Made by a program: the position numbers and the translations under genes
Part shown: positions 4,453 through 61,252 of the stretch, piece by piece
Layout: each line of letters begins with the position of its first letter
How positions within the stretch are numbered: position 1 is the first letter of the stretch
Notes under the pieces: model-generated
The model's database searches: none
Told to the model about the DNA's origin: nothing
What the model saw: the letters and a program-made list of their open reading frames with translations, nothing else
NCBI GenBank assembly: GCA_964016885.1
Contig: OZ024758.1
Span: 13,888,001 to 13,952,000, forward strand
Reading direction: 5' to 3'
From: Eledone cirrhosa
Lineage: Eukaryota
Length of the DNA stretch: 64,000 nt

Positions 4453-4488
4453 TCTTAACGTTTCGGACGCTAGTCCTTCATCAGAAGA
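4453..4488 (-). ncRNA. Minimal type I hammerhead ribozyme motif (family A)
   Basis: Minus strand reads UCUU-CUGAUGA-A-GGAC-uagc-GUCC-GAA-ACGU-U-AAGA. It has a 4-bp stem I, a 4-bp stem II, a palindromic ACGU helix-III region and a GUU cleavage triplet. Confidence 0.8.
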
Positions 4489-4698
4489 AAGAATGAGAAA
4501 GATTGAAGGGACAGGCAGGGCGGAATCGGAAAAACATATATATACATACATACATACATACATATACATATATACATACATATATATATATTTATATATA
4601 TATATACATATATACATACATATATACATACATATATAAAATATTTAAAAAATAATGAATAAAACAAAGAAACAGTTCCTTATATTAAACAAAAAAAG

Positions 4699-4841
4699 TT
4701 CATTATTTAACGATCGTTTCTAGGACATATATGTGTTAGAATTGGCATGCATATTCAAAAGATCTATGTACAAAGTTATACAAACTATCAAGGAGAATAT
4801 ACATACCATCACATATATATGCTGTCTTCAGAAATAATGAA
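4699..4841 (-). ncRNA. Type I hammerhead ribozyme motif with ~100-nt stem II (family B)
   Basis: Minus strand reads UUCAUUAUUU-CUGAAGA-[104 nt fold-back]-GAAA-CGAUCG-UU-AAAUAAUGAA. Stem I is a perfect 10 bp and the loop CGAUCG is palindromic. Confidence 0.75.
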
Positions 4842-4959
4842 GTATATCTTTCACCGAAAGTGATTTTTGAATGCATCTCTTCTTTCCATGATATCCGGAT
4901 TACATTGAGTTCTTCATACGGATTGGACACTACCGTAAACTTTTGGTAGATTTATCTAC

Positions 4960-5640
4960 ATACATATATATATATTTATATATATATACATACACATATA
5001 TATATATATATTTATATATATATACATACATACATATATATATATATTTATATATATATACATACATACATATATATATATATTTATATACATATATATA
5101 CATACATATATATATATACATACATACATATATATATATTTATATACATATATATACACACACACATCTATCCCATATCTCTAATTAATACATTTGTTTA
5201 TCAAACTCTAAGCTAAAACAGAAATTAATTGATACCTTATATATATATACATACATACATACATATATATACATACATACATATATATATATATTTATAT
5301 ACATACATATATATATATACATACATATATATATATTTATATACATATATATATATACACACACACACATCTATCCCATATCTCTAATTAATACATTTGT
5401 TTATCAAACTCTAAGCTAAAACAGAAATTAATTGATACCTTATATATATATACATACATACATATATATATACATACATATATATATATATTTATATACA
5501 TACATATATATATATACATACATATATATATATTTATATACATATATATATATACACACACACACATCTATCCCATATCTCTAATTAATACATTTGTTTA
5601 TCAAACTCTAAGCTAAAACAGAAATTAATTGATACCTTAG
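4960..5640. repeat. Three tandem ~220-bp copies of (TA/CA)n plus a unique ~70-bp block
   Basis: CATCTATCCCATATCTCTAATTAATACATTTG...GATACCTTA recurs at about 5165, 5367 and 5565. Confidence 0.9.
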
Positions 5641-7200
5641 CTTAACCCCCACACACACACACACACACACACACACCCCACCCCCCACACCACACCCCCC
5701 ACACCCGGTATTATTACCTGGGTAAGTTACAGTGACAACTATTGTTAGCGAAATATGATAAATAAACTGAATGTGAAATACAATTTTCTATATTTAATCA
5801 AAGATAAGTTCTAATATCATATTAACCAAAGTAAAAATATGCACTGTTGTTTTGAAAACATAATCTCAGTCAAAGGTTGATTCTGAATTTCTCTATTCTT
5901 TATATTGAAGCAGTACTAAGGCACACACACACATATATATATATATATATACACACTCATATACACACACACACACACAGATATATATATATATATATAT
6001 ATATATATATATATATATATATATATATATATATATATATATATACAAACATACACATGCACTCATACACACACACATACACTCATACAAACACACACAA
6101 CAAGCAGATGTAGGTTTATGTGTGCACATACTTAGATAGATACAGTCACACTTACATACATACATATGTATTTAAATATATATATATATATATGTGTATA
6201 CATATATGTGTATATATATATATATTTATACATATTTATATACATACATATTTATATATGTATATATGTATATATATATATATACATATTTATATACATA
6301 TTTATATATATATATGTATATATATATATACATATTTATATACATATTTATATATATATATATGTATATATATATATATACATATAAACATACATACATA
6401 CGTACACACAGACACAAACATACGTACACACAGACACAAACACACACACATACATAAACACACATATACCAGTATTTAAATATCTATAGCTTCATACAAT
6501 TTGCTCAAGAAAATAAATTTTATATAACAATTTAATCCATTTTATTTAAAATTTTATTTAAAATTTTATTTAAAATTTGAAATATTGTTTGTAGTTTGTT
6601 GTTTCTTATTGAAATGTTTGTGTTTTAATTACAATAAAATATGTTTAATTGTGGGAGAATGTTGTGTCTTGTAGCTGAAATAGTTTGTCATTTTAGACAT
6701 TAACCTTGTGTGTATATGTAAGTGTGTGTATGTGTGTGTGTATATATATATATATATATATATATATATATATATATATGTCATACTCTGCTCTATGAGA
6801 GATTACCACATACGGATGCTTTAAGCATACAACACCAATTATATATATATATATATATATATATATATATTTGTGTGTCTGTGTGTGTGTGTATATATAT
6901 GTGTGCATATATATATATATATGTGTGTGTGTGTGTATATATATATATATATTTATATATATATATATATGTGTGTCTCTGTGTGTCTATATGTGTATAT
7001 ATTTGTGTGTGTGTATATATATATATATATATATGTGTATATATTTGTGTGTGTATATATATATATATATATGTGTGTGTCTATATGTGTATATATTTGT
7101 GTGTATATATATATATATATGTATATTTGTGTGTCTGTGTGTATATATATGTGTGTGTGTGTGTGTGTGTGTGTATATATATATAGATATATATATTATA

Positions 7201-7266
7201 AAGAGTCAGGACCCGACAGCTGAGCTGTTGAAACAGCAAGAGCTCAGCTGTCGGGACTCTTTCTCA
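7201..7266 (+). mobile_element. Tiny fold-back remnant of hammerhead family I (3' half only) in a (TA)n tract
   Basis: GAAA-CAGC-aagagctca-GCTG-TC-GGGA, with inverted arms CCCGACAGCTGAGCT/AGCTCAGCTGTCGGG. Similar to 61058-61174. Confidence 0.6.
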
Positions 7267-58781: not shown

Positions 58782-59455
58782 CATCATCATCATCATTTAA
58801 CGTCCATCTTCCACGCTTGCATGGGTTTGGACGGGAATTTTCCCACTTGAGGCAAGATTGGTTGTCCTGCTCGTATAGGAATGTCTGGCGGGTTTTCTAC
58901 GGCTGGATGCCCTTCCTAACACCAACCACGTTTACAGTGTGGACTGGGAGGTTTTTACCGTGTTACCTACACGGCCACATTACAGCGTGGACTGTGTGTT
59001 TTTTTGTTGTGACACCTACACGACCTCATTTGTTTCGGCCTGGATGTTGCGGTACCAACATAACTTTACATTGAAAGGGGTAGTGGGACGGGGGTGTATT
59101 TTTGTTGGAGGTGCCTACTGAGTGTAGGTTTTGCTTTGTACTTAGGCAAGCTGGGTCTTCTGTATTACTGTGTAGCGCCAAAGATCTCGGTCCAGTGACA
59201 TTGTCTTGGAGAGGTGTAATATATATATATATATAATCATCATCATCGTTTAACGTCTATCTTCCACACTAGCATGGGTTAGACAGGAATTGTCCCATTT
59301 GAGGCAAGATTGGTCAGGTGACCGTGTCTCGTTCGTATAGGACTATCTGGCAGGTTTTCTACGGCTGGATGCCCTTCCTAACACCAACCACATTTACAGT
59401 GTGGAATGGGAGCTTTTACCGTGTTACCTACATGGCCACATTACAGCGTGGACTG
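58782..59455 (-). mobile_element. Two diverged (GAT)n-tailed retroposon copies
   Basis: GGCTGGATGCCCTTCCTAACACCAACC cores at about 58901 and 59363. Confidence 0.7.
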
Positions 59456-59595
59456 TTTTTTTTTGTTTTATATATATATATATATATATATATACATATT
59501 TATATATATGCAAAAGGCAAACAGAAATAACAAAGAAAACAACACAGTACAATGAAGAAATATGTTATTAGTTTTACGCTATAGTAGGAAAAGAA

Positions 59596-59631
59596 TCTTA
59601 ATGTTTCGTATGCTAGTCCTTCATCAGAAGA
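59596..59631 (-). ncRNA. Degenerate hammerhead motif (family A)
   Basis: UCUU-CUGAUGA-A-GGAC-uagc-AUAC-GAA-ACAU-U-AAGA, three substitutions from 4453-4488. Confidence 0.6.
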
Positions 59632-59699
59632 AAGAATGAAAAGTTGTATTCAAAAGTAGCTGGGTTATAGGAGATATTCGCTACTATATCCTTACACTG

Positions 59700-60663
59700 A
59701 GGTAATTGCTGGCCTTGTGCCAAAAGTAGAAACAATTATTACAACCGGTGGCTTGCCATTCATCCTTGTAGGGTCGATAAAGTACCAGTAAAGTACTGGG
59801 GTCGATTTAATCGACTTTCCCTTTCCCTGGCCTTGTGCCTAAATCAGTATTCATTATTAAACTGGCAAGGGTGGTTGATTGGCAGTATCGGTAGAGGTTT
59901 GGACGCCATGCTTTCTAGCATAGAGTTACGTCCCTTTATGATCTGAGTTCAAATCCCGCCGAGGTTAACTTTGCCTTTCATCCTTATGGGGTCGATAAAA
60001 TAAAGTACCAGTAATGTGCTGGTAATTGCTGGCGTTGTGCCTAAAGTAGAAACAATTATTAAACTGGCATTTTGAACAAAACCTAATTAAAAGGTTCCTA
60101 GATAAATTTATGATAAAAAACCTTAATTTAAATATGAACATTTTAAAATTAAAGGTTTCGAATCATAGAATCACAAAAGAAAAATGTTTTTAGATAGGTT
60201 GATAATTTCAAAGGTTTGTTAACAGTTAATGATACCTTATTGTTTATTCCAGTGCAACTGTTGCATTATTCTGCATCATATCTGCTAGATATTTCACACC
60301 AGTGCAGTTGTTGCACCGACTGATACTTCATTGTGTTCATTATATAATCAAAATAATATTTAATTTCTCTTTAGCTTCTTATTTTATTGTTTCACGTCAT
60401 GCCTGGGATCTTAACCCTGTCTTTTAGTACTTCTATGATTCCATGTTGTTATTATCTGCTACACTGCTACACAAAAGGCGGTGGATTGGCAGAATCGGTA
60501 GAGTGTCAGACACCATGATTTGCGGCATAGAGTTACGGCCCTTTGCGTTCTGAGTTCAAATCCCGCCGAGGTTTGCTTTGTCTTTCATCCTTACGGAGCC
60601 GATAAAATAAAGTACCAGTAATGCACTGGAATAATTGCTGGCCTTGTGCCAAAAGTAGAAACA
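59700..60663 (+). mobile_element. Cluster of family M SINE copies (about 59700-59850, 59869-60058, 60477-60663)
   Basis: Consensus matches; TSD ATTATTAAACTGGCA around the middle copy. Confidence 0.8.
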
Positions 60664-61057
60664 AACAATTATGATCTGCTACACATGACTAAATATTTAA
60701 ATACATGAGTGTGTGTGTGTGTGTGTGTGTAACATACACACACACACACATATATATATATATATATATACACACACATTATATATATATATATATGTGG
60801 TCGTGGAGGTGCCACGGCAAAAAAAAAGCACCCAGCCCACACTGTAAAGTGGACGTATAGGCGCCACGAAAAAGCACCCAGCACTCACTGTAAATGAGGT
60901 TGGTGTTAGGAAGGGCATCCAGCTGTAGAAATCAAGCCAGATCAGTTCCTGTATGAGCCGACCAGACACTGCCCACAACAGGACAACCCGTCTAACCCAT
61001 GCTAGCGTGGAAGAACGGACGTAAAACGGTGATGATGATGATGATGATGATATATAT

Positions 61058-61252
61058 ATAGGAACGAGTAGGACCCCGACGGCTGAGCTCAAGACGTTTC
61101 GACGGCTAATTCTAGTCCAGAATTAGCCGTCGAAACGGCTTGAGCTCAGCCGTCGGGGTCCTACTCGTTCCTATTACCCACTCTACTACCCTAAGTATTG
61201 AGTACTTTGGTGCGTTATGGTCCACCTGGTTCCTTACCACATTTCCTTCATT
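61058..61252 (+). mobile_element. Penelope-like fold-back insert, family I, with 3' half-hammerhead
   Basis: 56-bp arms 61058-61113 and 61119-61174 (1 mismatch). GAAA-CGGCU-ugagcuc-AGCCG-UC-GGGGUCC; 78-bp tail. Confidence 0.75.

Follow-up and report, generated by a model that had tools for sequence, protein, structure and literature searches.

Penelope-Like Element Insertions in the Window

The stretch of DNA analysed here, called the window below, comprises 64,000 nucleotides of the Eledone cirrhosa genome (positions 13,888,001 to 13,952,000 of contig OZ024758.1, C19 in our numbering, of a 3.0-Gb assembly). It is microsatellite-rich and contains satellites and repeats resembling short interspersed elements (SINEs). 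Sixteen insertions of Penelope-like elements (PLEs) were found in it and assigned to nine families, A to I; ten of the 16 are two-armed, with the arms facing away from each other. In six families, the arms match pseudo-long terminal repeats (pLTRs) or 3' ends of elements elsewhere in the genome (loci with L numbers); arms may bear a hammerhead ribozyme motif and a 3' tail. The insertions are as follows.

4438..4537, minus: family A fragment cut just 3' of its hammerhead; intact minimal hammerhead 4453–4488, helix III word ACGU; 92% to L017
4641..4847, minus: family B (Hydra-type) arm ending at the inner 3' site; hammerhead 4699–4840, recognised by fold; 99% to the L169 pLTR
4842..4960, plus: opposite family B arm, tail only; matches L169 5930–6048, without overlap with 5702–5909 matched by the other arm
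7198..7268, no strand: family I-related palindrome, 3' hammerhead half only; assigned by a weak match (33 nt, 82% to L057) and by sequence, with no match to L198
15931..16092, both strands: family I head-to-head pair; minus arm 15931–15996 without tail, plus arm 15996–16092 with tail
17305..17700, both strands: family C head-to-head pair, junction near 17424; both hammerheads with private mutations, tail on the plus arm; no parent open reading frame (ORF) found
19045..19222, plus: fragment of the older family E (86–91% between copies); decayed hammerhead, core at 19113; no parent ORF found
19278..19516, minus: family D (Hydra-type) arm with tail; intact hammerhead 19402–19472; 95% to the L246 pLTR
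19517..19690, plus: family D arm without tail, beginning at the 5' hotspot 19518 with an extra G at 19517; intact hammerhead 19579–19649
20066..20185, minus: family F (Neptune-type) arm without tail; U3–A8 hammerhead 20139–20176
20186..20490, plus: family F arm with tail; U3–A8 hammerhead 20314–20351; 95% to both L048 pLTRs
21005..21200, minus: family A-related fragment; decayed hammerhead near 21097
23025..23297, both strands: family G (Hydra-type) head-to-head pair; intact hammerheads 23060–23119 (minus) and 23130–23195 (plus), tail on the plus arm; 90–97% to the L264 pLTRs
23325..23600, both strands: family C insertion; minus arm with decayed hammerhead 23369–23433, plus arm (from about 23502) tail only
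45253..45320, plus: family I tail fragment, 92% to the family I reference; absent from the list of the earlier note introduced below
56368..56520, plus: family D-related subfamily (80%) with the same 5' hotspot as D; helix III damaged
56553..57090, both strands: family H head-to-head pair, junction near 56845; non-canonical core near 56755; 96% to the 3' end of the L175 element
59508..59660, minus: family A fragment; decayed hammerhead near 59596
61058..61252, both strands: family I (Hydra-type) head-to-head pair, junction 61113; 96% to L198; both arms begin inside helix II, hence only the 3' hammerhead half is present

Hammerhead Motifs

An earlier note, made from the letters of the window alone, had placed 16 full hammerhead motifs here, at about one per 4 kb, and the features that it described do lie at the positions given. 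The 16 motifs belong to 12 of the insertions, head-to-head arms having been counted twice. A strict type I descriptor requires the core CUGANGA or its U3–A8 variant UUGANAA, then GAAA and UH, with helix II of at least 3 bp, helix I of at least 4 bp, and helix III palindromic or a short hairpin. Seven motifs conform to it (4453−, 19402−, 19579+, 20139−, 20314+, 23060−, and 23130+), and the density of intact motifs is therefore one per 9 kb. An earlier form of the descriptor that lacked the additional base following A9 picked up just two. In block dinucleotide shuffles of the window, the mean was 0.03 motifs with 200-nt blocks (60 shuffles, maximum 2) and 0.02 with 1000-nt blocks.

Nine of the 16 motifs fail the descriptor. 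Six are decayed copies of families A, C, and D (17355, 17501, 21097, 23369, 56430, and 59596). The family B motif at 4699 is atypical, with a helix II of about 115 nt containing a mismatched base and a helix I of 10 bp, as is the motif at 19101, which belongs to family E. The motif at 56755 (family H) is not a canonical hammerhead: the core is CAGUUGA in 14 of 16 copies, in a hammerhead-like fold. Families A, C, D, F, and G pass the descriptor in other genomic copies. The earlier description of about nine unrelated families went too far in one respect, since the hammerheads of C and D share helix I, and those at 4453, 21097, and 59596 represent one family (A). The large and diverse radiation that it saw is real, but the phenomenon is already published (PMC4209133, PMC8557442).

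The stems covary: among 27 distinct C-type variants, compared in a fixed register and without a shuffle control, two-sided changes occur at six of eight helix II pairs. Four pairs are kept in 27 of 27 variants, and one in only 13, partly owing to register shifts. The Rfam models did not bear the motifs out: no hammerhead is among the best 150 of 825 matches of an E-value scan of the window, and none reaches the gathering score in 19050–23620. This silence, together with the general knowledge that inverted repeats can be amplification artefacts, could suggest chance motifs or assembly chimeras. Such an origin has a negligible probability and is refuted by the excess over shuffles, the compensatory changes in helix II, the thousands of copies with fixed ends, and the point mutations by which arms differ.

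In evenly chosen 10-kb stretches, 18 descriptor matches were found in 250 kb of contigs C6–C28 (shuffle mean 0.13) and two in 200 kb of C1–C5 (shuffle mean 0). The window is in line with the small contigs and not special. Intact hammerheads are about seven times denser on the small contigs (72 per Mb) than on C1–C5 (10 per Mb). A rough extrapolation gives about 100,000 intact motifs in the genome (about 55,000–205,000 from two Poisson intervals). At least 12 further hammerhead families with other helix III words are absent from the window (e.g., L125, L127, L162, L182, L194, L239, and L247). Family A has 1,156 first-look candidates genome-wide. On C20, five near-identical 3-kb blocks, 125–770 kb apart, each carry the same A fragment (L023–L027); family counts there are inflated by these segmental repeats.

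Parent Elements

A genome search for GIY-YIG endonuclease (EN) gave 10,597 first-look candidates, of which 150 were scored. Parents encoding reverse transcriptase (RT) and GIY-YIG were found elsewhere in the genome for six of the nine families: four Hydra-type (B, D, G, and I), one Neptune-type (F), and one CCHH-bearing (H). Both domains lie in a single ORF, recognised by Pfam in F and H and by motifs and a profile match in B, D, G, and I, whose ORFs have no Pfam match. In F, the parent (L048) has the order pLTR, 938-aa ORF, pLTR, with RVT_1, a CX4CX2C linker, and GIY-YIG; family D likewise flanks a 775-aa ORF (L246), family I a 794-aa stop-to-stop frame (L262), and family G a broken ORF (L264), the 5' repeat of which is nearer to the window copy than the 3' repeat (90%). 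In these four loci, the pLTRs surround the ORF in partial tandem. Family H lies 350 bp 3' of a 546-aa RT and GIY-YIG ORF (L175), and family B, with parents at L169–L173, 2.3–2.5 kb 3' of an ORF in four loci.

The same sequences are thus pLTRs or 3' ends of PLEs, and the earlier suggestion of (TA)n-targeting PLE remnants is supported for six families. Its alternative, non-autonomous ribozyme retroelements (retrozymes), is not: the window contains no tandem hammerhead units, a retrozyme trait, and six families have ORF-bearing parents. The statement that the window has no RT or GIY-YIG coding sequence also holds, as a tblastn search with ten PLE ORFs matched only the pLTR part of family I.

The ORFs of B, D, G, and I share DKT, YRDD, a CxCX5C linker (for family I, seen in other copies), and CxxC and CxH around the E and N of EN, and they lack CCHH. 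The RWK word is RWK in G, RWI in D, RWR in I, and VWR in B. The Hydra-type fold proposed for these ORFs draws on the motifs and on the profile match between the Hydra-type and Neptune-type (F/H-type) profiles (99.0%, E-value 5.5e-18), which extends across RT and EN. The ORF of F has DKG, YLDD, a CX4CX2C linker, and a CCHH-type GIY-YIG. DKG, the CX2-5CxxC linker, and CCHH are common to Neptune, Nematis, and Naiad, and the Neptune assignment, like the Hydra ones, was made by motifs. A PDB sequence search gave no match, and the 19 proteins returned by a homologue search had no informative names. The YRDD ORFs had been considered Nematis-like; this was dropped for Hydra-type after comparison with the motif list in PMC8557442. 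Families C (by matches in the window) and E (by eye) have a small tail hairpin as in D, G, and I, and for this reason are probably Hydra-type too.

The Hydra-type ORFs of D (L246:2353-4677, minus strand) and B (L171 and L173) contain Asn/Thr-rich in-frame inserts between the RT thumb and EN; that of D is about 70 aa long and recalls the N-rich inserts described for Adineta PLEs (PMC3846280). In family I (L262:3335-5716, minus strand; window 61116–61220), the frame is open from the predicted start through the ribozyme half and the tail into the ORF. Family A (L021 and L203–L215) has a polypyrimidine tract and CAG about 190 nt upstream of the hammerhead, resembling a 3' splice site.

Architecture of the Insertions

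Within a family, an arm has its 3' end at one of two fixed positions. With the G of GAAA as reference point, these are +64 or about +148 in D, about +90 or +159 in F, +42 or +144 in I, and about +50 or +121 in G. Exactly one tail was present in 12 of the 12 close head-to-head pairs among the first 100 D matches. Inverted pLTRs with a one-sided tail are a published PLE hallmark; the tails here (65–105 nt) are longer than the 30–40 nt given in the text of PMC8557442. In vitro, the tail of an Anolis PLE corresponds to the stretch between two internal RT starts (PMC11167929). A small hairpin, RCTC ... GAGYRCT, occurs in C, D, G, and I tails just past the inner 3' end (window 16019, 17612, 19395 on the minus strand, 23234, 23523, and 61144).

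The copies extend across the site at which the ribozyme is predicted to cut. Directly after the element there is a run of TA at 137 of 150 ends in D, 39 of 43 in F, 74 of 84 in I, and 14 of 31 in G. Searches for empty sites matched two of 67 and six of 96 pairs, one of them informative: TA was present before the insertion and is longer after it. This single comparison fits targeting and creation of (TA)n alike, and any target-site duplication is hidden by (TA)n.

Another possible source of head-to-head palindromes is a cDNA that folds back and primes itself on an antisense template (Arkhipova et al. 2013), as proposed for Adineta PLEs (PMC3846280). Perfect palindromes are indeed common, and both D arms in the window share variants. 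This explanation is very improbable here, being already strained by the B (4641–4960) and C (23325–23600) insertions, whose two arms cover different parts of the element and so cannot be a fold-back of a single cDNA. The two fixed 3' ends, the one tail per pair, and the independent ending of each arm at the predicted sense start also speak against it.

The 5' Ends

The 5' ends of copies pile up at one spot in four families. In family F, 2,465 of 7,603 copies (32%) extend 9 nt upstream of the spot, and at a control site 33 nt downstream 5,907 of 6,336 (93%) do. Sixteen of the first 30 F copies stop within 4 nt, at a point 30 nt past TATAAAA, and a CCAAT box lies farther upstream; about one third of F copies keep the TATA box. 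The plus arm 20186–20490 contains the CCAAT box at 20196, the TATA box at 20246, and a predicted transcription start at 20276. In family D, 7,019 exact copies of a 30-mer were counted, 2,769 of them with the next 6 nt of the element; of the first 100 matches on C1, 53 continue past the spot, whereas 47 end within 10 nt, and an inverted arm abuts 41 of these 47. In contigs from three sequencing runs of unspecified kind, depth is higher downstream of the D hotspot than upstream; since depth does not measure copy number, no weight was given to this. Family I has 22,044 exact copies, of which 2,288 keep the next 15 nt, although exact-pattern ratios are lowered by subfamily variants, most strongly in I. 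In 19 of the first 30 I copies the stop falls within 7 nt, about 29 nt downstream of a TATA-like word; this word overlaps helix II on its 5' strand. The pile-up of I lies inside the ribozyme, with the predicted start about 18 nt before GAAA, and explains the half motifs at 15.95k, 61132, and probably 7230. A fold-back at helix II of family I was considered and dropped, because the true 5' strand of helix II in full copies differs from the inverted arm.

A fourth family, not present in the window, was picked for its clear TATA box, and a stop about 30 nt downstream was predicted before looking. Eleven of 30 copies stop, and in nine the stop is no more than 4 nt from the predicted position, 31–33 nt after TATAAAA. 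The spot thus lies 29–33 nt after a TATA-like box in three families, one of them predicted in advance. In family D, the base before the start is G in 1,174 copies, T in 900, A in 306, and C in 3,666; an extra G fits a copied cap. We infer that transcription of each family begins at the pile-up and that the short arms come from the 5' pLTR of a sense RNA.

The same PLE origin could be combined with short copies from the 3' pLTR that end at a recurrent pause or microhomology stop unrelated to transcription. The D hotspot is a palindromic 6-mer through which many D pairs join exactly, and the I ends scatter across about 10 nt within a helix. Such a stop is unlikely, given that an arm ending at the hotspot is often paired with a partner cut anywhere, that the TATA-like spacing recurs and was once foreseen, and that the control site loses only 7% of copies.

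Several observations weigh against the reading proposed here. Family D has an initiator-like CA and no TATA box at −30, and its hotspot overlaps the self-complementary CATATG, which could itself favour joining. The extra G of D occurs in nine of the first 100 copies, about half of 30 inspected cases are templatable by the other arm or a short duplication (partly by eye), and family F has no G excess before the start. Families B, G, and H show loose 5' clusters or none among 5–15 copies each. The consensus words for TATA and initiator are those of general knowledge, and the lowered exact-pattern ratios belong here too. As to parentage, only an RT remnant was found for family A, upstream of it at one locus (E-value 1e-11), and no parent ORF was found for C and E among the genomic loci examined.

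Possible Mechanism of Insertion

With a probability of roughly two in three, the islands are short, 5'-truncated pLTR copies of at least nine PLE families in (TA)n, produced mostly from the twice-copied front end of an unspliced, uncut sense RNA. The RT-endonuclease would nick both target strands in TA-rich DNA, and cDNA synthesis would begin at two internal sites of the sense mRNA, one per target strand. A start in the 5' pLTR of the mRNA would run off at the transcription start after 60–260 bases, while a start in the 3' pLTR would give longer, variably truncated arms; the two cDNAs would then be joined through short microhomology. In vitro work on the Anolis PLE describes nicking and extension of both strands, two internal starts, an uncleaved RNA template, and a protein-assisted ribozyme (PMC11167929).

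The hammerheads would be passengers of the pLTRs, cleaving weakly, as dimers, or with protein help; weak, dimer-dependent cleavage is reported for minimal hammerheads (PMC4209133). Ribozyme cleavage is likely not needed for insertion. Family H copies are 96–98% identical despite their non-canonical core, and an I subfamily has a C3–A8 mismatch, both of which fit a dispensable ribozyme.

Short RNAs of promoter-keeping solo pLTRs (e.g., window 20186–20490) might instead be copied in trans, like SINEs; the 5' end would still be the transcription start, and only the source RNA would differ. This is improbable, as the stubs are 95–99% identical to ORF-bearing pLTRs without a separate diagnostic structure and form no tandem arrays in the window. 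On its side are the F copies that keep their TATA box, the excess of pLTR sequence over ORF-bearing copies, the missing parents of C and E, and non-autonomous PLE derivatives described elsewhere (PMC8557442 and bioRxiv 10.64898/2026.07.22.740005). A non-autonomous status of family D, argued from its fixed 5' end, was dropped because the ORF-bearing L246 exists.

For the sense-RNA proposal itself, the evidence leans slightly towards a wider reading. If the pile-up is the start, the solo stubs of animal genomes would be paired run-off cDNAs of uncut mRNA, promoters could be mapped from DNA, and antisense self-priming would be wrong for these clades. One Hydra family would have its promoter inside the ribozyme, so that only the 3' ribozyme copy could form.

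Other Features of the Window

A 31-bp tandem repeat at 10678–11174 has CUGAUGA in each unit and no GAAA half, and the descriptor does not accept it as a hammerhead. A palindrome of 88 bp within TA (44106–44193) has no match to the PLE references and is possibly another family. The intervals 31400–35100, 62430–64000, 46069–46822, and 47049–47462 hold satellites (about 85 and 72 bp) together with SINE-like 3' ends in tandem arrays. Two further features, at 56155–56212 and 24760–24933, are a SINE head related to tRNA, which scores above the Rfam tRNA threshold, and two SINE-like ends lying tail to tail.

Comparison with Known Systems

Families B, D, G, and I resemble the Hydra clade of PLEs with a C-terminal EN (EN+), to which Hydra-1_Obim of Octopus bimaculoides belongs (Craig et al. 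2021, PMC8557442), in ORF motifs, (TA)n insertion, and a hammerhead in the pLTR. The clade, its octopus member, and its (TA)n preference are published. By eye, family G resembles Hydra-1_Obim, including the ACCA-n-UGGU helix III. As described, the clade has few families, generally below 3 kb; here there are at least four, with units of 3.5–3.9 kb. Also unlike the described clade are the 7,000–22,000 exact copies of single 30-mers, the Asn-rich inserts, and the predicted promoter inside the ribozyme (I).

Family F shares DKG, YLDD, CCHH-type GIY-YIG, the linker, and microsatellite targeting with the Neptune clade as presented in PMC8557442, and differs from the described clade in its U3–A8 core. 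It has TATA and CCAAT boxes upstream of the predicted start, whereas Drosophila Penelope has a TATA-less internal promoter (PMC2377424). TATA and initiator words in a pLTR have been published (PMC3846280).

The minimal type I hammerheads that Cervera and de la Pena (2014, PMC4209133) described in metazoan PLEs are alike in the extra base after A9, the palindromic helix III, and the U3–A8 variant. They too are mostly solo truncated copies, with opposite-strand pairs 100–700 bp apart and many families per genome. The load here (about 100,000, roughly) exceeds the 2,000–9,000 given there, with different descriptors. The stable 6-bp helix III of I and the non-canonical core of H depart from those described. 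Metazoan non-LTR retrozymes (PMC7229834; bioRxiv 10.64898/2026.07.22.740005) are alike in type I hammerheads and the PLE link. As characterised in these sources, they are ORF-less tandem repeats of 150–450 bp with a canonical hammerhead per unit, whereas the islands consist of pLTR ends, solo or inverted, from elements that carry an ORF.

Hydra-type ORFs escape Pfam and these hammerheads escape Rfam, and a large repeat fraction can therefore easily remain unannotated or be filed as hairpin elements. The earlier interpretation is in part supported; it lacked the head-to-head and tail hallmark, the U3–A8 variant, and the fixed 5' end.

In vitro results for Poseidon of Anolis (PAc; Frangieh et al. 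2024, PMC11167929) fit our proposal in double-strand nicking and extension, two starts, and an uncleaved template; in what is available of that study, genomic 5' ends are not mapped to the transcription start. In the literature surveyed, mostly without subscription papers, no report linking PLE genomic 5' ends to the transcription start was found. The mechanism of one-tailed head-to-head insertion, with a sense or an antisense template, is stated to be open (PMC3846280, PMC8557442). If the hotspots are transcription starts, a sense twin-start model becomes testable to the single base, and there would be a simple cause for the excess of solo minimal hammerheads across animal genomes. Minimal hammerheads, the U3–A8 variant, inverted pairs, and an octopus Hydra element were known before; what is added here is the fixed 5' end and its likely link to the start site.

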